Assembly (NCBI GenBank): GCA_019566135.1
Contig: GCA_019566135.1_3044.1
Origin: a phage
DNA: 64,000 bases
Strand: one strand, 5' to 3'
This document shows, piece by piece, positions 1,782 to 57,702 of the stretch; the first letter of the stretch is position 1; the number at the start of each line of letters is the position of its first letter. The notes under the pieces are model-generated. The model worked only from the letters and a program-made list of their open reading frames with translations. It made no database searches and was not told the origin of the DNA. The position numbers were made by a program, and so were the translations under genes.

Positions 1782-4046
1782 TCATAATTTACAGGATGAA
1801 CAATCTTCAGCTTTTGGAGTTTCTATTTCATAATCATCAGTACCAGAACCATCACGGGTATTATGATAATAGAAATTTTTTCCGCCAAAATACCAAAAAT
1901 ACAAAAGGTCATCAATCATTATTGACATTGGAACCTTTCCTTTTGGAAAAATCTGTGGGTCATAATATGTATTCGCCGAAGCTGATTGACAAACCCATTT
2001 CAGCATAATAGCTACCTGCGTAAGATAAGGTTTATTACCTTTCTTAGCTAATTTCCATGTATAATCATAGAGGTCTATGTTATGCTCAATATTGGGCACG
2101 ACTTGATTAAAGGAGCCCTCTTTTGATTCTTTAACAGAGACTGGTCCACGTGGAGGCTCGATACCGTTTGTACTGTTAGAAACTTGGGAAGATGACTCAC
2201 ATGGCATAAGTGCTGATAATGTGCTATTACGGATGCCAAAGAGCTTAAGGTCTTCCCGCAGCGACGACCAGTCACAAACGTATTTTGGAGCTGCGATTTG
2301 GTCAATCTTTTTATTGTACCAGTCGATAGGTAATTCGCCTCGAGACCAACGAGTGTCTGAATAATATTCGCAAGGTCCTTTTTCTTTGGCGAGCTTAATG
2401 GATGCTTTAATGAGTCCATACTGTAATCTCTCAAATAGTTCATGTGTTAAATCGTTAGCATCTTCATAAGAAGCAAAGTTACTTGCCAGCCAAGCTGCAT
2501 AGTTAGTAACACCTACACCGAGGTTACGACGCTTTTTAGCTTTTTCTGCTTCAGGAACTGGATATCCTTGGTAATCCAAAAGATTATCAAGAGCACGAAC
2601 TTGGACTTCTGCCAATTCATTAATTTTATCTTGGTCTTGCCAGTCAAAATTATCCAGTACGAATGCAGAGAGAGTACACAATCCAATTTCAGCATCAGGA
2701 CTATTCACATCATTTGTTGGAATAGCAATTTCACAGCACAAGTTACTCTGACGAATAGGTGCCTTTTCACGAATAAACGGAGTATAGTTATTCGTATTAT
2801 CAATGAACTGCACATAAATCCTTGCTGTTCCTGAACGTTCAGTCATGAGCAATTCAAATAGTTCACGGGCTTTAATACGCTTTTTACGAATATTAGGGTC
2901 TTTTTCTGCTGCTTCGTATAATTCACGGAAACGGTCTTGGTCTTTAAAATAAGAATAATACAGCTCTCCACCCATTTCATGTGGACTGAACAAAGTAATG
3001 TAATCGTTCTTTCCGAATCGTTCCATCATCAAATCATTCAGCTGAACGCCATAATCCATATGACGAATGCGGTTTTCTTCTACGCCTTTGTTATTTTTCA
3101 AAACGAGAAGATTTTCAACTTCCAAATGCCAAATAGGATAATAAGCAGTAGCAGCGCCGCCACGAATTCCACCCTGTGAGCATGATTTAACAGCAGTCTG
3201 AAAATGTTTCCAAAAAGGAATAACACCAGTATGGCGTACTTCACCCATGCCAATCTTAGAACCTTCGGCACGAATCATACCAACGTTAATACCAATTCCA
3301 GCACGTTTGGAGATATATTCAACAATTGAAGCGGAAGCCTTATTGATAGACTTTAATGAATCACCTGCCTCAATAACAACGCATGAACTAAACTGTCGAG
3401 TCGGAGTACGGCAACCAGCCATAATAGGAGTTGGCAATGAAATCTGTCGAGTAGATACTGCTTCATAAAAACGAATAACGTGTTTTAATCTATCAACAGG
3501 TTCATCTTGATGCAATGCCATTCCAATAGTCATAAATGCAAACTGTGGAGTTTCATAAATTTGACCGGTGGTTTTATCTTTAACTAGATATTTTTCTTTT
3601 AATTGCATCGCCCCGGAATAAGTAAATTCCATATCCCGCTCGTGCTTAATTTTTGATTCTAAAAATGTAATTTCTTCTGCTGAATATTTTGACAATAATT
3701 CAGGGTCGTATTTACCTTCATTTACGCAATAAGAAATATGGTCAATAAATGAACGTGGTTCATATTGTCCGTAAACATGCTTACGAAGAGCGAACATTAA
3801 ACAACGTGCAGCTACATATTGATAATCAGGCTCTTCAACCGAAATAGAATTCGCAGCAGCCTTAATGACAATAGTCTGAATATCATCAGTTGTCATTCCA
3901 TCACGGAGATAAGATTTAATATTTTCATATAATTCATAAGGATCTACTGATGTTCCTTCAGCTGCCCAAGATAAAACTTTAATAATTTTTTGTGGGTCAA
4001 AGCTCTGAGAAACACCACTACTTTTGATAACATTAATTAATTGCAT
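1782..4046 (-). CDS. nrdA: Ribonucleotide reductase large subunit
   Basis: 754 aa, same length as T4 NrdA; class I RNR motifs; C-terminal CSSCKL. Confidence 0.93.
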   Translation of the reverse strand: MQLINVIKSSGVSQSFDPQKIIKVLSWAAEGTSVDPYELYENIKSYLRDGMTTDDIQTIVIKAAANSISVEEPDYQYVAARCLMFALRKHVYGQYEPRSFIDHISYCVNEGKYDPELLSKYSAEEITFLESKIKHERDMEFTYSGAMQLKEKYLVKDKTTGQIYETPQFAFMTIGMALHQDEPVDRLKHVIRFYEAVSTRQISLPTPIMAGCRTPTRQFSSCVVIEAGDSLKSINKASASIVEYISKRAGIGINVGMIRAEGSKIGMGEVRHTGVIPFWKHFQTAVKSCSQGGIRGGAATAYYPIWHLEVENLLVLKNNKGVEENRIRHMDYGVQLNDLMMERFGKNDYITLFSPHEMGGELYYSYFKDQDRFRELYEAAEKDPNIRKKRIKARELFELLMTERSGTARIYVQFIDNTNNYTPFIREKAPIRQSNLCCEIAIPTNDVNSPDAEIGLCTLSAFVLDNFDWQDQDKINELAEVQVRALDNLLDYQGYPVPEAEKAKKRRNLGVGVTNYAAWLASNFASYEDANDLTHELFERLQYGLIKASIKLAKEKGPCEYYSDTRWSRGELPIDWYNKKIDQIAAPKYVCDWSSLREDLKLFGIRNSTLSALMPCESSSQVSNSTNGIEPPRGPVSVKESKEGSFNQVVPNIEHNIDLYDYTWKLAKKGNKPYLTQVAIMLKWVCQSASANTYYDPQIFPKGKVPMSIMIDDLLYFWYFGGKNFYYHNTRDGSGTDDYEIETPKAEDCSSCKL

Positions 4047-8296: not shown

Positions 8297-8339
8297 ATTA
8301 TTTTCCTCTTTGATCATCAGCAGTATTGCCGATAGTTGT

Positions 8340-8369
8340 ATAGTACCATGGAAGGACAAGGATGTAAAC
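8340..8369 (-). promoter_or_regulatory. T4-type early promoter (-35 GTTTAC 8369..8364, -10 TGgTACTAT)
   Basis: Same conserved module; follows the gene 32 terminator (PeSL-type cassette). Confidence 0.65.
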
Positions 8370-8390
8370 AGTTTTGTGAAAAAATTTTTG

Positions 8391-26130: not shown

Positions 26131-26171
26131 TTTCTAATCTCCGTAATTCTGTATCAGTAGTTGATAGTTGT

Positions 26172-26201
26172 ATAGTACCACAGTATGCTTTGGTTGTAAA
26201 C
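26172..26201 (-). promoter_or_regulatory. T4-type early promoter upstream of motA
   Basis: -35 GTTTAC 26201..26196, -10 TACTAT 26177..26172, 18-nt spacer. Confidence 0.65.
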
Positions 26202-26223
26202 CGTTTTGTGAAAAAAATTTTTG

Positions 26224-27737: not shown

Positions 27738-27878
27738 TTACCATACTAGTGAATGTAGTGCCATAATAACATCAGAAATGAAAAGCACGACTTGAATTAA
27801 TCCAAACATTACTCCATAATATAGTGCTATTAATAAAATAGCAAGGGCTAATGAATAGCCCAAGATTTTCTTAATCAT
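27738..27878 (-). CDS. Small hydrophobic peptide (46 aa, MIKKILGYSLALAILLIALYYGVMFGLIQVVLFISDVIMALHSLVW)
   Basis: ORF between ac and 52; ATG overlaps the ac 3' end. Confidence 0.4.
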   Translation of the reverse strand: MIKKILGYSLALAILLIALYYGVMFGLIQVVLFISDVIMALHSLVW

Positions 27879-28029
27879 TAGTAGATAACAACACAAATGT
27901 TAAATATGCACACATACCCTGAGCTAAAGCTTGCGAAAACACACTGCTGGCATCAATACAGATAGTTAAAACACATGCTACTATCCAACAAATAAATGAA
28001 ATAACTCCTAATAATTTTGCAATATTCAT
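27871..28029 (-). CDS. ac: Ac-like small membrane protein (acriflavine sensitivity), 52 aa from ATG 28029
   Basis: MNIAKLLGVISFICWIVACVLTICIDASSVFSQALAQG...; size and position as T4 ac; AGGAGA SD. Confidence 0.6.
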   Translation of the reverse strand: MNIAKLLGVISFICWIVACVLTICIDASSVFSQALAQGMCAYLTFVLLSTND

Positions 28030-29698: not shown

Positions 29699-29958
29699 AG
29701 CTCAATCTCAGCGATTTTCATTTCATTACTATTAATAGCCGCTTTAAGACTATCTGAAAGAATTACATTCCAGTGGTCATTCATATGACCATTAACTAAG
29801 CGTGTAATTTCTTCAGGAGTTGAAAAATAAGGCTGATCAGACTCCCAATGCGATAATCCTAAGCGAGTATAAATCATGCCTTCATCATCGCTAGAATATT
29901 CAACTGACACAAACTCATCAGTTATTTTATGTTTAGCGTAATAAAATTTAAATTTCAT
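29695..29958 (-). CDS. Hypothetical protein (87 aa from ATG 29958)
   Basis: ATG 29958 with GGAG SD, downstream of early promoter. Confidence 0.5.
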   Translation of the reverse strand: MKFKFYYAKHKITDEFVSVEYSSDDEGMIYTRLGLSHWESDQPYFSTPEEITRLVNGHMNDHWNVILSDSLKAAINSNEMKIAEIEL

Positions 29959-29992
29959 TTTATTCTCCAAATCCGTATCAGTTGATAGTTGT

Positions 29993-30022
29993 ATAGTACC
30001 ACGGTCCTTGTGGCATGTAAAC
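29993..30022 (-). promoter_or_regulatory. T4-type early promoter
   Basis: -35 GTTTAC 30022..30017, -10 TACTAT 29998..29993. Confidence 0.6.
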
Positions 30023-30038
30023 CATTTTATGAAATTTT

Positions 30039-30596
30039 TTAAATGGAAAGATACCATCCGTTGTAGTTGCTTTTTCTTACAACCTTACGAAGGTCTTCTC
30101 TATCACCGATGAACTTCGGAGTGTACTGGATGACACCTGGATGAATTTCTTTAGTGTTGAATATAATTATACAGTCAGCGACTTGATGATTTAGAATGGG
30201 CCCTAGATTTATTCCAGAACCGTATGGATACTCTCCGCTGTATCCTGTCGTTACTGAAATCCATCGAGAGTCAGTTTGGTGTGTTTTAACTTCTACCCGA
30301 AGCCCGCAGTATTTTGGATGTGCTAAAACATCCCATGCATATGTATACGGATCATCGACGTCTTCTTGACCTTTATTAACATACCCACTTAACCAATCTG
30401 CTACAACATACTCAGCATACACTGCGATACGGCATCTTTCGATAACTTCTGCTTTATCCTGGTTCGGGTTTTGTTTTAAAGAGTATCTTGCTGTATCAGC
30501 AATTTTGACCTTCATTTCACTAGTCAAGTCACTGTTCGATAGGGTAAATGTCGGAATCTGAAATAGTCTCTGTAAACCCGGATTCGTTTTCTGCAT
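30039..30596 (-). CDS. denB: Endonuclease IV
   Basis: 185 aa; position between ndd region and rIIB. Confidence 0.8.
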   Translation of the reverse strand: MQKTNPGLQRLFQIPTFTLSNSDLTSEMKVKIADTARYSLKQNPNQDKAEVIERCRIAVYAEYVVADWLSGYVNKGQEDVDDPYTYAWDVLAHPKYCGLRVEVKTHQTDSRWISVTTGYSGEYPYGSGINLGPILNHQVADCIIIFNTKEIHPGVIQYTPKFIGDREDLRKVVRKSNYNGWYLSI

Positions 30597-34282: not shown

Positions 34283-36103
34283 CTACTGGCTCATCCATTC
34301 TTTACGAAGGTCAGCATTATCTCCCATGAGCATTTCAAAAAGCTCTTTCCAGTTCTCAGGAAGTTTAACAACATCATATACTGGATTTTGAATCATTTCA
34401 CGATATTCAGATTTTTCCAAAGAGCCAAGTCCTTTAATATAACGGATGCTATGTTTAGGTAGAGCATCTTTGGCACTCTCATATTCAGCGACTGTATAAA
34501 ACCATTCTTGTTTTTTACCGACCTGAGCGATGATTACAGGAGTTTTGACAAAGCGAATTCGTCCTTGCTCAAACAATTCTGGCCAATTACTAAAAAATCC
34601 GAGCAGAGAAGGATAAATGCTTCCTAGACCATCATGGTCAGCATCAGTCATAATAGCAATATTGCGATAATTCATGTTTTCAGCTTTTTCACCAAGAACT
34701 AATCCAGTGATTGCGCAAATATCAAATAGTTCTTTGTTTTTAAGCATATCTGCATAAGACATACCCCAACTGTTGAGAACTTTACCACGCAATGGATAAC
34801 CACCATGAAGTTCTTTATCACGAACATCAATAAGATATCCGATAGCAGAATCACCCTCAGTCAAGAAAAGAGTAGTATCAGCATCTTTACCGCACAGATT
34901 AGCTTTAATATGTTTATGAACCTTTGCCTTAGAAGCCTTTTTAGCTGCTTTAGTTTCAGCTGCTTTTTCTGCTGCCAATTTACGAGCTAGTGCAGCTTCA
35001 ATAATTGGCATTAAAATTGCTTCATTATTTAAAATAGCGCGTGAAATCTTTTTAGCGTCAAGTTGAATATGACTACGGATTTCACCAAATGGAGAAGTCA
35101 AACGCTCTTTAGTTTGAGAATCAAATCGCATGTTTTTCATATCACGAACAAACATAACGATAGTCAAACATTCTTTAACGCGTGCTTTAGTTACATCAAT
35201 TTTGAACTTACGTTTGATTTGTGGAATAAGGTCTTCACAAATATCATCCATAACACAGTCAATGTGATGGCCACCATTCTTAGTATGAATGTTATTGACG
35301 TATGTTAATTGACGAAATCCATCCGGTGAACGACCAACCGCAATAGAACAATTTTCTTGTTCTTGAACAATAGCATGTTCATCATACTGTAGTGCATATT
35401 TCTTAAAATTGCCCTGAACCTTTTTACCATTAAAGGTAAATTGAATATCAGGATAAACAACAGCAAGTGTCTGGAGACGATCTAGTGTAATGTCAAGATA
35501 AACTTGGGACAGCTCATTAGTTTCAAATGACATAAAATCTGGAATGAAAGTAACACGAGTTCCTTTCCATTTTCCAGGAATAGTTTCCCAGGATTTATTT
35601 TCCATGCCATTTGAACAACGAACTACAATATTATTTTGACCATCGCCAGTTTCACCGACAAACATCACAGAAAAAATGTTAGTTAAACTAGAACCAACAC
35701 CATTCATACCACCGGTGACACGTTCTTTATCATCACCAAAGTTACCACCCGCTTTTGGAATAGTCCAAGCAGCAACTGGACCAGGAATTTCTTCACCGGT
35801 AGGTGTTTTAACCATCGCTTGTGGAATACCACGACCGTTATCTTCAACTGTTACTTGATTGTTTTTAATAGTAACATTAATTTTATTTGCGAATTTAAAC
35901 TTAGTACGAATACCTTCATCTACTGAGTTATCGATAATTTCATCAATAAGCTTAACAAGACCAGGTACATACTGAACACTTTCCCATTTACCAAACAGAA
36001 AGCGCTCATGCATTTCATTAGCAGAAGAGCCAATGTACATGCCACTACGCTTTTTGATATGTTCAATATCGCTCAGAATTTTAATTTCATTCTTAATCAT
36101 CAC
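34283..36103 (-). CDS. 39: DNA topoisomerase II large subunit, unsplit (gene 39 and gene 60 portions in one ORF)
   Basis: 606 aa contiguous GyrB-like ATPase plus TOPRIM; no split, no mobA, no bypass gap. Confidence 0.9.
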   Translation of the reverse strand: MMIKNEIKILSDIEHIKKRSGMYIGSSANEMHERFLFGKWESVQYVPGLVKLIDEIIDNSVDEGIRTKFKFANKINVTIKNNQVTVEDNGRGIPQAMVKTPTGEEIPGPVAAWTIPKAGGNFGDDKERVTGGMNGVGSSLTNIFSVMFVGETGDGQNNIVVRCSNGMENKSWETIPGKWKGTRVTFIPDFMSFETNELSQVYLDITLDRLQTLAVVYPDIQFTFNGKKVQGNFKKYALQYDEHAIVQEQENCSIAVGRSPDGFRQLTYVNNIHTKNGGHHIDCVMDDICEDLIPQIKRKFKIDVTKARVKECLTIVMFVRDMKNMRFDSQTKERLTSPFGEIRSHIQLDAKKISRAILNNEAILMPIIEAALARKLAAEKAAETKAAKKASKAKVHKHIKANLCGKDADTTLFLTEGDSAIGYLIDVRDKELHGGYPLRGKVLNSWGMSYADMLKNKELFDICAITGLVLGEKAENMNYRNIAIMTDADHDGLGSIYPSLLGFFSNWPELFEQGRIRFVKTPVIIAQVGKKQEWFYTVAEYESAKDALPKHSIRYIKGLGSLEKSEYREMIQNPVYDVVKLPENWKELFEMLMGDNADLRKEWMSQ

Positions 36104-36152: not shown

Positions 36153-36170
36153 AAAGGCCCGAAGGCCTTT
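36153..36170 (-). other. Stem-loop AAAGGCC-UUCG-GGCCUUU at the stop of the lipoprotein gene
   Basis: 7-bp perfect stem with UUCG loop. Confidence 0.55.
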
Positions 36171-36439
36171 TATTTAAAACGAATAGTTGAATCCTTAAAG
36201 AACAGCCCAGAACATACTGTTCCTTCTACTTTCTGCCCGGTAGGTCCAATAGCACGAAATCCAGTATGTTGGAAATCATTTTCAGAGCAACCGAACCAGT
36301 TATATCCAGTGATTTCAATATTCGTAAAACCACTTGATGATAAAATTTTAGTTGCATTATCAGCATCAGTACATCCTACTAAAGATACTGCTAATACTAA
36401 TGCTGCGATAGAACGATTAATATATTTCATAATTTTCAC
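36170..36439 (-). CDS. Small lipoprotein (signal peptide plus lipobox LVGC)
   Basis: MKIMKYINRSIAALVLAVSLVGC...; 89 aa. Confidence 0.6.
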   Translation of the reverse strand: MKIMKYINRSIAALVLAVSLVGCTDADNATKILSSSGFTNIEITGYNWFGCSENDFQHTGFRAIGPTGQKVEGTVCSGLFFKDSTIRFK

Positions 36440-36807
36440 TTAAATTTAATAGCTTGAAGAAGACTAATAATTCTCAAGCGACTTCTTTCATCTTTAACTG
36501 TAAAGGAAAGAGGGTCGCCAGATTTCATGGTAATAGTGCATTCAAAATCAAAATCTTCTGTGACTTCTTCGAAGAAGTCAAATTCTTCAGCATAAATTAG
36601 AACATTACTCTGAAAACTGTGAAGAATTTTTCCGTTATTTCCAGACGCTGTACTAATCATCGTAACATTATGACCTTTCATATCTTCAACGATAAATTCG
36701 CTTGTAGATATTACAGCATTAATAGAACCATTCCTATAAATAGCAGACATTAGATATTTCTTTTCTTCGCCTTCGCGAATACGATATTTCTTACCGATTT
36801 TAAACAT
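36436..36807 (-). CDS. Hypothetical protein (123 aa), coupled to the lipoprotein gene
   Basis: ATGA overlap with the downstream lipoprotein ORF. Confidence 0.5.
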   Translation of the reverse strand: MFKIGKKYRIREGEEKKYLMSAIYRNGSINAVISTSEFIVEDMKGHNVTMISTASGNNGKILHSFQSNVLIYAEEFDFFEEVTEDFDFECTITMKSGDPLSFTVKDERSRLRIISLLQAIKFK

Positions 36808-37642: not shown

Positions 37643-37924
37643 TTAATTGAACAGTGGAGCGATGCGTTTCAGAAGAGTAGCAGCACCTTTAGCGAATTTT
37701 ACATCATGAAAAACAGTTTCTTCTTCTGTAACAACTCGAACTTTAATATTTTCACAATCCCAATTTTTACGAACAATCTTCAAAAGCTGCAGTAAATCTT
37801 TACATTCAGCAATATCGATAACACATCCACGAGAATCTTCCATTATCGCACGATAACCGTAAGCCATACCATAATCATTGAAAGATTGCTCGATGATAAT
37901 TAAGTTTTCCATTTTATTCTCCAA
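37643..37924 (-). CDS. Hypothetical protein (93 aa)
   Basis: ORF with ATG; promoter-like region upstream. Confidence 0.5.
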   Translation of the reverse strand: MENKMENLIIIEQSFNDYGMAYGYRAIMEDSRGCVIDIAECKDLLQLLKIVRKNWDCENIKVRVVTEEETVFHDVKFAKGAATLLKRIAPLFN

Positions 37925-37936
37925 GTTGTTTTCTGT

Positions 37937-37979
37937 ATCAGTAGTTGATATTGATATAGTACCATAATCAACTACTGAT
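37937..37979 (-). promoter_or_regulatory. Promoter-like element with -10 TACTAT inside a 13-bp perfect inverted repeat (ATCAGTAGTTGAT, 17 nt, ATCAACTACTGAT)
   Basis: Arms at 37937-37949 and 37967-37979; the usual GTTTAC -35 is replaced by one arm. Confidence 0.45.
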
Positions 37980-38019
37980 GTATATAGTTTTATGAAAAAA
38001 ATTTAAACTTTATGCAAAT

Positions 38020-51004: not shown

Positions 51005-51298
51005 TTATTCGCCTGTGATTTCGGTTACGATATTTTTGTTATTAAAGTTTTTATCGCAATACAGAACATAATTATACTGCATTACACCACCAGACTTAAG
51101 TTGTTTTTGCACTTCAGCTTTCATTTCAGGACGATCGCGCTCAACGATATTCATAATATCCGCTTCAATTTGAGTTTCAACTTCAGTCTGATCTGCAGTC
51201 ATAGACCATTCACACAAATCTTTATCATATCCTGCCATAGCAGGCTGAGTAGCACAAGAAGCCAAAGTAAAAATTGTAGCAAAAATAAATTTTTTCAT
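51005..51298 (-). CDS. sp: Spackle periplasmic protein
   Basis: 97 aa with signal peptide MKKFIFATIFTLASCATQPAMA; size and position as T4 sp. Confidence 0.75.
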   Translation of the reverse strand: MKKFIFATIFTLASCATQPAMAGYDKDLCEWSMTADQTEVETQIEADIMNIVERDRPEMKAEVQKQLKSGGVMQYNYVLYCDKNFNNKNIVTEITGE

Positions 51299-54892: not shown

Positions 54893-55741
54893 TTAATCAA
54901 CTGCTATTGGATGAATAGCATTAAACTTATGAAATGCTTCTGATTTTTCTTTACGCGAAACACACATGCGAAGAACCTTTAGTGGTTCATCTTCTTCACC
55001 CAACGATTTTCGTTTTTCAATATTCGATGTTTTCCAACGAGCTTGCTCTGGAAACTCTCTATTGATTTGCTCAAGCGCTCTATTATGTTTAGAATTACTA
55101 CGAATTGAACTACACCCGCCAGGAGCTTGTGCTTTTCCAGATACAACTAGATATTTGAACAAGGCCAAATGCGGATAACCTTGATTAATTAAATTGAGAA
55201 ATGCATACATATCTTCGCATAAATCAATTTTTCCATACCCAATTTGTTCTGTCGTAAGTTTTCCAAGGTCATACCAAGTATTCGTGAATCCATATGAATT
55301 TTCACGATAATTACCCCAAGATGAAGTAATTTTAAAAATTGGTAAACGAGCATGACCATGATAATACCCACAATCCATGGCATCTTCAACGTATTGAATC
55401 AATTCATAGAACTGTTCACGAGTTAATTGATTAATTTTATCTACACAGCGACGATCATCTTTCTTTCGCATTGAACTCATACGAATAGTAGTATCATCAT
55501 CAATCATCCAGATTCGTTGACCTGCATACATATCAGTAATTGCTTTACGAGTACCAGCAATTCCATTAACATCATCAGGAATAGTTATAATTTTGGCTTT
55601 AGACCCGTAAGCGTCATAATAAGCTTTTTCTTCGTGTTCACGTACTACAATATGAGGTTCATAATCAGTCGGAAACATATCAAGGGCAGAAACTGCCCCT
55701 ACGCGTTGATAGCTTGGAATTACGAATTGAATCATTTCCAC
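54893..55741 (-). CDS. HMC-DNA glucosyltransferase at the beta-gt locus (282 aa, DxD motif); T2/T6-type second-glucose transferase suspected
   Basis: MIDDDTT DxD motif; sits between uvsX and 42 where T4 has the 351-aa beta-gt. Confidence 0.5.
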   Translation of the reverse strand: MEMIQFVIPSYQRVGAVSALDMFPTDYEPHIVVREHEEKAYYDAYGSKAKIITIPDDVNGIAGTRKAITDMYAGQRIWMIDDDTTIRMSSMRKKDDRRCVDKINQLTREQFYELIQYVEDAMDCGYYHGHARLPIFKITSSWGNYRENSYGFTNTWYDLGKLTTEQIGYGKIDLCEDMYAFLNLINQGYPHLALFKYLVVSGKAQAPGGCSSIRSNSKHNRALEQINREFPEQARWKTSNIEKRKSLGEEDEPLKVLRMCVSRKEKSEAFHKFNAIHPIAVD

Positions 55742-56479: not shown

Positions 56480-56629
56480 TCAATTGATACATTCATATTT
56501 AACTTGTAACAGTAATAAACCCCAACCTATAATAAGTGTCGGAATCATACAAGGAACCGTTACGCTATAGTATATACTTATTATAATCATCAAGATTAAA
56601 AGCAATACTGCTAAAATTTTGCTTTTCAT
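56480..56629 (-). CDS. Small hydrophobic peptide (49 aa, MKSKILAVLLLILMIIISIYYSVTVPCMIPTLIIGWGLLLLQVKYECIN)
   Basis: ATG overlaps the imm stop (ATGA); stop overlaps the gene 42 SD. Confidence 0.45.
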   Translation of the reverse strand: MKSKILAVLLLILMIIISIYYSVTVPCMIPTLIIGWGLLLLQVKYECIN

Positions 56630-56877
56630 TCCTTCTCTCTGATGATAATTACTTGATTCGGTTGTGCAGATTTTTTAGTTTCACCCGCAATTGACCAAAT
56701 AAATGTAATAAACCAACCAATAATTGACCAGTTAAACAGTAAAGATGTGAAAAAGATTCCTACTGTCGATTTTGACCCGCGCATCAAGGCGATGAACCAC
56801 GGAAGCATGTATATAATAATAGCTAACACGCCTGAAACTAAAACCATAAAAATTGAACCTGCTACTAAAGTTTCCAT
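56626..56877 (-). CDS. imm: Superinfection immunity protein Imm
   Basis: 83 aa with two TM segments; size and position as T4 imm. Confidence 0.8.
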   Translation of the reverse strand: METLVAGSIFMVLVSGVLAIIIYMLPWFIALMRGSKSTVGIFFTSLLFNWSIIGWFITFIWSIAGETKKSAQPNQVIIIREKE

Positions 56878-56884
56878 GTTTTCC

Positions 56885-57265
56885 TCACTTAGTCAAATTT
56901 TTTACACATGAATTATAAGAATTCACTACATACTCCATCGGAGCATTTTTACCAGTACGCCATTGGTAATTATTAGCCCAATTTGCCCAAAGTTCAGCGC
57001 AGTAGTTTTCAATTTTTTCTTCGCGTGTAATTACATCCGAATTACGATATGCTTGAGCAGATTCATCTGGACGAATAGCTTCGTCAAAATTCGCCTGCAT
57101 TTGTTCTACTGTCTGTTTTGGAGCTTCTTTATAACACTTGACATTAGGATTATAAAATTTGCTTGAACAGTTTACAATTTTTCCTACATCAGATTGATTT
57201 ACTACCGGTCCTTGAGCTACACAACCAGTAAGACCCAATGTAATAACCAAAATAGCAATTTTCAT
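56885..57265 (-). CDS. Lipoprotein (lipobox LTGC), 126 aa
   Basis: MKIAILVITLGLTGCVAQG...; several Cys; next to imm. Confidence 0.55.
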   Translation of the reverse strand: MKIAILVITLGLTGCVAQGPVVNQSDVGKIVNCSSKFYNPNVKCYKEAPKQTVEQMQANFDEAIRPDESAQAYRNSDVITREEKIENYCAELWANWANNYQWRTGKNAPMEYVVNSYNSCVKNLTK

Positions 57266-57275
57266 AATAATTTCC

Positions 57276-57533
57276 TCAAATACAAGTAGTAATTACTCCA
57301 GTAGTGCTTACACAGGTATTACCTAATTGAACACCAAGCGTTCCATTAGTATTCATATGAAGATTATCATCAATTTTTGTTGATACTTTACCATTCATGT
57401 GAATAACAGTATTAGATTCAATCACATTCTGAGTGTCATTTTCAATATCAATAAATGGAACAGCTGCTAATGCAACTAGAACAACTGCTAATGCAACTAA
57501 ACACGCTGCTAAACAACCATAAACAATTTTCAT
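57276..57533 (-). CDS. Membrane-anchored small protein (85 aa from ATG 57533)
   Basis: MKIVYGCLAACLVALAVVLVALAAV...; ATG downstream of early promoter. Confidence 0.5.
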   Translation of the reverse strand: MKIVYGCLAACLVALAVVLVALAAVPFIDIENDTQNVIESNTVIHMNGKVSTKIDDNLHMNTNGTLGVQLGNTCVSTTGVITTCI

Positions 57534-57567
57534 TTTATTCTCCAAATCCGTATCAGTTGATAGTTGT

Positions 57568-57597
57568 ATAGTACCATGGAAGAACAGAGATGTAAAC
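57568..57597 (-). promoter_or_regulatory. T4-type early promoter
   Basis: -35 GTTTAC 57597..57592, -10 TGgTACTAT 57576..57568. Confidence 0.65.
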
Positions 57598-57676
57598 CGT
57601 TTTGTGAAAAAATTTTTAATGAATTTACAGGACCTAGAATCATCTATTTTTCCTAAGTATAGATTTATATTACTTG

Positions 57677-57702
57677 TATGAAAAAGGGACCCGGAGGTCC
57701 CT
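57677..57702 (-). terminator. Rho-independent terminator after gene 43
   Basis: AGGGACC-UCCG-GGUCCCU followed by UUUUUCAUAC. Confidence 0.65.

Follow-up and report, generated by a model that had tools for sequence, protein, structure and literature searches.

The family of small lipoproteins to which Imm.1 of phage T4 belongs (phrog_1754) is the invariable neighbour of the gene imm in at least seven lineages of T4-like phages. This linkage, the timing of expression and the predicted compartment considerably strengthen Imm.1 as a candidate for the exclusion machinery, and on these grounds it can be put forward as a strong one. Imm.1 was analysed together with a second lipoprotein, gp39.1, which is unrelated to it and far more widespread.

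Both proteins are encoded in the window (the whole stretch of 64,000 nucleotides analysed), which comes from a T4-like Tequatrovirus phage: a megablast search with the two loci returned more than 500 T-even records, the best with about 99% identity. All the genes discussed are on the - strand, and the two ORFs to which an earlier note had assigned lipoprotein signal peptides are present on that strand at 36170..36439 and 56885..57265. The second of them (126 aa; Pfam DUF5481) is located between gene 43, which encodes the DNA polymerase, and imm, with gene 42 also in its neighbourhood, and corresponds to imm.1 of T4. The first one is located just upstream of a fused gene 39 (large subunit of topoisomerase II), has genes 39 and 39.2 as neighbours and is gene 39.1 of RB14 and T4. 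Its start at 36439 is an upstream in-frame GTG (89 aa); homologues and the annotation of RB14 and T4T use the ATG at 36430, which gives a precursor of 86 aa at 36170..36430 (phrog_902), and the lipobox is unaffected by this choice.

Gene 39 itself (34283..36103) is a single ORF of 606 aa in the window and is split into genes 60 and 39 in T4. Between 39.1 and 39.2 there is an ORF of 123 aa (36436..36807; RB32ORF005c, phrog_622) that T4 lacks; it shows weak similarity to goF (phrog_13003, E 3e-7), and goF lies two genes upstream.

Lipoprotein signal peptides of Imm.1 and gp39.1

Lipoproteins were defined by a PROSITE-style rule consisting of a positively charged n-region, a hydrophobic h-region and the strict pattern [LVI][ASTVI][GAS]C, with the cysteine at position 15-35. 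The rule matched at 4 of the 318 ORF loci of the window, against 0.2 +/- 0.45 matches in 100 random sequences generated by an order-1 Markov model with the same dinucleotide composition, of which none (0/100) reached three. The four loci are gp39.1, Imm.1, spackle and a small hydrophobic ORF at 27871..28029. In gp39.1 the signal peptide and lipobox LVG/C (36371..36430) comprise a short basic n-region, a hydrophobic core and the lipobox, reading MKYINRSIAALVLAVSLVG/C, with the cysteine at position 20 from the ATG (codon 36371..36373) and Thr as the +2 residue. Imm.1 presents the same organisation (57221..57265; lipobox LTG/C), reading MKIAILVITLGLTG/C, with Cys15 (codon 57221..57223) and Val at +2. 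According to the Lol sorting rule of E. coli, lipoproteins whose +2 residue is other than Asp are directed to the outer membrane. Because Asp occupies this position in none of the gp39.1 or Imm.1-family members compared, the outer membrane is the predicted destination of both proteins, and we infer from their sequences both this location and their lipidation.

The cysteine is conserved in each family. It is kept in 40 of 42 gp39.1 homologues, in which the signal-peptide sequence drifts freely and the +2 residue is Thr in 38 of the 42. Among ten members of the Imm.1 family, with identities of 18-36%, the only invariant columns are M1, K2, G14, the lipobox Cys15, Y38 and two C-terminal cysteines; the exception within DUF5481 is the member P0054, which has LAGF and therefore no lipobox cysteine. 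The pattern, the chance control and the family-wide conservation support the call of gp39.1 and Imm.1 as genuine phage lipoproteins, which was the claim of the earlier note and is sound, conservation being a stronger argument for it than the pattern.

That the lipobox pattern alone is no proof of lipidation is shown by spackle (sp, gp61.3; 51005..51298, 97 aa), a periplasmic exclusion factor. Its signal peptide carries a motif with the cysteine at position 15, LASC in the window and in T4 and AVSC in Mosigvirus (also at 3237..3530 of locus L004). However, the soluble protein is cut after residue 22, as determined by N-terminal sequencing (PMC7650644) that covered the released soluble fraction only, so the lipobox of spackle is a false positive of the pattern. 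In the same way, the motifs of gp39.1 and Imm.1 could be unused for lipidation, the proteins being cleaved by signal peptidase I or keeping an uncleaved hydrophobic N-terminal anchor, and P0054 and one gp39.1 relative that lacks the cysteine would agree with this. We consider it improbable: unlike spackle, gp39.1 and Imm.1 both lack a good A-x-A site downstream of the cysteine, and this cysteine is fixed or almost fixed in signal peptides that otherwise vary freely. Besides, a Klebsiella-phage homologue is entered in GenBank as a 'putative lipoprotein', and its annotator gives a SignalP probability of 0.98. Lipidation thus remains the preferred reading for gp39.1 and Imm.1. Regarding the fourth locus, the ORF at 27871..28029 (52 aa) has its lipobox match, IVAC, inside a long hydrophobic stretch; its product is unlikely to be a lipoprotein and is probably a small protein of the membrane.

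The Imm.1 family and its linkage to imm

In the window, imm (56626..56877; 83 aa, PF14373) starts 7 nt past the stop codon of imm.1, on the same strand, and its own stop codon is overlapped (ATGA) by the start of a 49-aa ORF with two hydrophobic segments (56480..56629; phrog_3610). On the other side of imm.1 there is an ORF of 85 aa (ORF85; 57276..57533, phrog_4189), whose product would be exported or N-terminally anchored and which is inserted with respect to T4 and differs in its presence within the genus. ORF85, imm.1, imm, ORF49 and gene 42 are separated by gaps of 7-10 nt or joined by the ATGA overlap, with a GAGG-type ribosome-binding site before each. The unit is headed by an early-type sigma-70 promoter (57568..57596; TTTACA, a 17-nt spacer and TG-TACTAT), and an intrinsic terminator hairpin located after gene 43 (57685..57702) separates this gene from it. 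The promoter lies inside an element of about 90 bp that occurs at five sites of the window in the same orientation (57525..57619, 8331..8389, 26132..26221, 29950..30042 and 37906..38007), the last of them upstream of the gene run containing 39.1. The repetition of this element accounts for the multiple places per record found in the DNA search; paralogues of ORF85 were considered as their source and rejected, the repeat being the early-promoter region. In the transcriptome and proteome of T4, Imm.1 is classed as early RNA and early protein, like sp and dmd, and gp39.1 as early RNA and late protein (PMC9697503).

ORF85 is found in 326 phage records and its N-terminus is variable. The spacer between gene 43 and imm.1 measures 183 bp in T4 and 449 bp in the window, where ORF85 occupies the position of the ribosome-binding site used for imm.1 in T4. 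The earlier note described the 85-aa protein as membrane-anchored and placed both it and spackle nearby. Its hydrophobic N-terminus of 23 residues is indeed there and may serve as an anchor or as a signal that is cleaved off. As for proximity, ORF85 does lie beside imm.1, whereas spackle is 5.6 kb from imm and not adjacent to it; it is in Mosigvirus that spackle adjoins imm. The 49-aa ORF is intact in T4, although unannotated in NC_000866, and a gene of 49 aa likewise comes after imm in L008, a divergent relative from a metagenome. Downstream of gene 42, the window has a gene of 282 aa (54893..55741) that is unlike the 351-aa beta-glucosyltransferase of T4, and the same position in related loci is occupied by a gene of the Pfam TAGT family.

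Imm.1 matches Pfam DUF5481 with 239 bits (cut-off 27) and phrog_1754 with an E value of 9e-44; no functional family emerged for it or for gp39.1 from searches of Pfam, NCBIfam and PADLOC. Single-sequence searches retrieve a narrow set, namely three clusters at 90% identity and six at 50% identity among 1.84 billion representatives, and a family-profile search extends the relatives to 24 clusters. The results of tblastn are bimodal, with identities of at least 95% in 502 Tequatrovirus records and of about 33% in 155 records of RB69-like phages (Mosigvirus); the record counts of Imm in the two genera are nearly equal (658 and 657). Several product names in the databases are misleading: Imm.1 is an 'iduronate sulfatase' in the T4 RefSeq entry (locus L002, NC_000866, 2637..3014), a relative in Citrobacter phage NM4.3 is a 'Conotoxin', the products under the match in phage Killian include a 'major tail protein', and 'immunity protein' is used in several records.

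The family also includes larger lipoproteins from T4-like genera in which a DUF5481 homologue had not been detected previously. Phages of Klebsiella, Citrobacter and Serratia have a lipoprotein gene of 146-148 aa (LTG/C) immediately upstream of imm, and in Gaprivervirus and Dhakavirus imm comes directly after gene 43 and is followed downstream by a lipoprotein gene of 166-167 aa (LSG/C). All these proteins match phrog_1754 with E values from 1e-15 to 1e-52, most of them near full length. A first profile-profile match between them and Imm.1 was partly driven by the signal peptides, so the comparison was repeated on mature sequences and the PHROG matches were then relied on; with the signal peptides removed, a motif after the cysteine, G-x-VV-x-x-S-x-VGK, aligns with an E value of 4e-6, against 0.35 in the reversed control.

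Across lineages, the identity to the window protein is 22-34% for the mature lipoprotein, 40-64% for Imm and 57-83% for gp43 (tblastn-aligned segments). Imm.1 diverges faster than Imm or the polymerase, yet it retains the lipobox and the C-terminal cysteine pair. The AlphaFold model of Imm.1 is confident only at residues 81-125, which form a helical hairpin with the conserved C89 and C120, and is of low confidence in the N-terminal two-thirds, which may be flexible. A Foldseek search of the model against the PDB gave no match with E below 1.

The association with imm was analysed in an IMG/VR sample of 80 Imm-encoding loci, of which 26 are T4-like by the independent criterion of having gp43, gp42 or sp as a neighbour, and 53 others could be scored. 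A lipobox ORF lies directly beside imm, upstream or downstream, in all 26 T4-like loci, but in only 2 of the 53 other Imm-family loci; among the other ORFs of the T4-like loci only 1 of 234 matches the rule. Fisher tests give p values of about 1e-19 against the other Imm loci and about 1e-21 against the background ORFs, for loci that are not phylogenetically independent and represent some 7-9 lineages. The earlier note had proposed looking for conservation beside imm in relatives, and this conservation holds in the T4-like loci despite inversion of the gene order and relocation of the pair. In Mosigvirus phage moskry, the gene of the Imm.1 homologue (also LTG/C) lies in another neighbourhood, flanked by dmd and primase, where the genes run imm.1-like, imm, spackle; in RB69-like phages the imm.1/imm pair is relocated beside spackle.

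The reciprocal view gives the same picture. Three divergent metagenomic genes of DUF5481 (P0054, P0055 and P0057) are each directly followed by a PF14373 imm gene. Exact-protein look-ups of the context of five divergent family members were informative in four, the fifth contig stopping at the lipoprotein gene, and imm adjoins the lipoprotein gene in all four (on either side, with an overlap of 4 nt in one). In a distant large phage (locus L088, 2501..2986; an IMG/VR contig of 167,849 bp) the Imm homologue has 68 aa, and 1 nt beyond its gene begins that of a secreted protein of 92 aa, which has an ordinary cleavable signal peptide (SVSAYA/ED) and is not a lipoprotein.

The pairwise distances of the lipoprotein and of Imm are correlated (r 0.87), also after controlling for gp43 (partial correlation 0.72; partial Mantel p of about 2e-4). 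This correlation indicates co-inheritance as a unit and is no proof of contact, because the genes are adjacent; since adjacent genes share their recombination history, the mirror-tree signal and the synteny could both reflect co-inheritance rather than interaction.

The gp39.1 lipoprotein

Homologues of gp39.1, which matches phrog_902 with an E value of 6e-37, were found in 50 clusters and 1071 phage records, from phages of many host genera. Besides the cysteine of the lipobox, two more occur in at least 90% of the 42 homologues and probably form a disulfide. In the structure model, one helix packs on a four-stranded antiparallel sheet in a cystatin/PepSY-like manner, and the fold matches, which are generic, are to cystatin, PepSY and the colicin M immunity protein, all of which share this helix-on-sheet arrangement. 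Several proteins with these folds are inhibitors or immunity proteins that act outside the cytoplasm.

The earlier note placed gp39.1 near receptor and immunity functions, which its surroundings contradict: the neighbourhood in the window, made up of topoisomerase gene 39 and early genes, shows no link to receptor or immunity genes. gp39.1 most likely binds or inhibits a conserved component of the envelope rather than a phage receptor. A more specific version, held here only tentatively, is that gp39.1 would act in the periplasm by inhibiting some conserved enzyme, for instance a hydrolase of peptidoglycan or a protease of the envelope, thereby protecting the envelope of the infected cell or the phage's timing of lysis, with no role in exclusion.

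In the T4 reference, gp39.1 is a protein of 65 aa that lacks a signal peptide, since LINS stands in place of the lipobox and a +1 frameshift follows (locus L001, NC_000866, 3399..3700). Only the legacy records M89919 and X06220 and the composite AF158101/NC_000866 carry this version. Among the records listed, ten independently sequenced T4 genomes (including T4T, KJ477684-6, MT984581 and OZ209023) all match at 93.4% over 120, not 121, bases. The two of them whose sequences were examined, T4T (locus L099, 421..681) and clone T4_3t3, encode an intact gp39.1 lipoprotein of 86 aa. The notion that T4 naturally lacks the gp39.1 lipoprotein was consequently rejected, the lesion being confined to legacy records. 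The reference record therefore misrepresents 39.1, and constructs designed from NC_000866 would miss the signal peptide.

Imm.1 and superinfection exclusion

Small phage lipoproteins that face the periplasm, contain an internal disulfide and prevent reinfection have been described in T5 (Llp) and in T1 and phi80 (Cor) (PMC9586334), and Imm.1 and gp39.1 resemble them as small phage lipoproteins. One or both of the proteins could mask a receptor, binding the periplasmic face of an outer-membrane protein and stopping further adsorption. They are small lipoproteins with conserved cysteine pairs, as is Llp (61 residues when mature, Cys11-Cys58; PMC9586334), and both genes are transcribed early in T4, although the gp39.1 protein is classed as late. 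Nevertheless, Llp is linked to its receptor and specific for it (PMC9586334), and Llp and Cor are both tied to FhuA in this way, whereas Imm.1 and gp39.1 are unlinked to receptor-binding genes, neither gene being near the tail-fibre genes, and do not vary with receptor use. As regards Imm.1, T2 and T4 use different receptors and their proteins are near-identical (97.6% and 98.4% identity to the window protein, respectively); as regards gp39.1, its conservation extends across phages of many host genera. Sequence-family and fold searches found no match resembling Llp or Cor for either protein. The analogy with receptor-blocking lipoproteins drawn in the earlier note is thus not sustained, and receptor masking seems very unlikely.

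Imm.1 has more in common with T4 Imm (PF14373) and Spackle (gp61.3), being found in the same phage group, the same early expression class and the cell envelope, and adjoining imm or, in Mosigvirus, imm and sp. The three proteins are nevertheless non-homologous: Imm.1 is predicted to be lipid-anchored, Imm is an integral membrane protein and Sp is soluble. Another precedent is Ltp of the Streptococcus thermophilus phage TP-J34, which blocks the injection of DNA rather than adsorption, injection being the step that Imm affects. It is a phage lipoprotein with a role in superinfection exclusion (PMC3952083), as proposed for Imm.1; unlike Imm.1, Ltp comes from a temperate phage of a Gram-positive host, is surface-exposed and acts alone, and no shared family was detected, DUF5481 being the single Pfam hit of Imm.1. 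The pairing of an inner-membrane protein with a lipoprotein of the outer membrane, their genes lying side by side or overlapping, also recalls the two-component spanins (Rz/Rz1; PseT.3/PseT.2 in T4), given the 4-nt overlap between imm and the lipoprotein gene in one relative. However, spanins are late lysis proteins whose inner-membrane subunit has a long periplasmic (coiled-coil) domain. Imm is early, almost entirely hydrophobic and, with 83 aa, has no evident periplasmic domain; Imm.1 is early both as RNA and as protein, with imm 7 nt downstream under the same early-type promoter, and there is no homology with spanins.

We propose, at about an even chance, that Imm and Imm.1 constitute a two-part envelope module for superinfection exclusion. 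Both lipoproteins would be exported to the periplasmic face of the envelope. Imm.1, co-transcribed from the early promoter with the inner-membrane protein Imm, would be the periplasmic half of a two-component module that blocks the entry of DNA from a superinfecting T-even phage. Contact with Imm or with the tip of the incoming tail would be made by its lipid-anchored N-terminus with the conserved G-x-VV-x-x-S-x-VGK motif, its flexible middle and its C-terminal helical hairpin, held by a disulfide. Cloned imm alone reportedly gives exclusion, a result attributed to Lu and Henning; Imm.1 would therefore not be strictly required and would act as an enhancer or specificity factor.

The main rival of this module is that Imm.1 is an early periplasmic protein with another job (envelope stability, Imm biogenesis, signalling in lysis inhibition or action against host envelope defences), which stays by imm only through a shared need for immediate-early expression and membrane targeting. 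The early regions of T4 pack many unrelated small genes into shared transcripts, mutants of imm and sp also affect lysis inhibition (PMC6832632), and cooperation with Imm and any exclusion activity of Imm.1 are functions that we infer. However, the other small ORFs that lie between the core genes of T4-like phages vary greatly, ORF85, ORF005c and ORF49 being present in some phages and missing from others, while the imm.1/imm pair survives relocation and inversion of its order, and in Mosigvirus is found with sp. A function outside exclusion is accordingly regarded as rather unlikely, though it deserves more weight than either receptor masking or the absence of lipidation.

Returning to the Imm/Imm.1 module, a bolder form of it can be considered, which we find less probable than the module itself but possible. 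T-even immunity would be due not just to Imm but to a conserved two-component and possibly trans-envelope system, formed by inner-membrane Imm and a fast-evolving outer-membrane lipoprotein whose long flexible region and hairpin span the periplasm and keep the tail tube off the inner membrane, the lipoprotein setting which phages are excluded. This last property, if true, would explain the rapid divergence of the lipoprotein.

Both genes are already annotated and remain uncharacterised; literature searches found no functional data on Imm.1 or gp39.1, nor any paper on the linkage between Imm and a lipoprotein. If the module holds, Imm.1 would be a new component of a classic system. The action of Imm was still considered poorly understood in a review of 2019 (PMC6832632), and the way in which Imm stops the DNA of a second phage is a question that has been standing since the 1970s. 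A conserved early periplasmic lipoprotein beside imm offers a concrete new handle on it, and Imm.1 may also explain why the specificity of exclusion differs between T-even genera.
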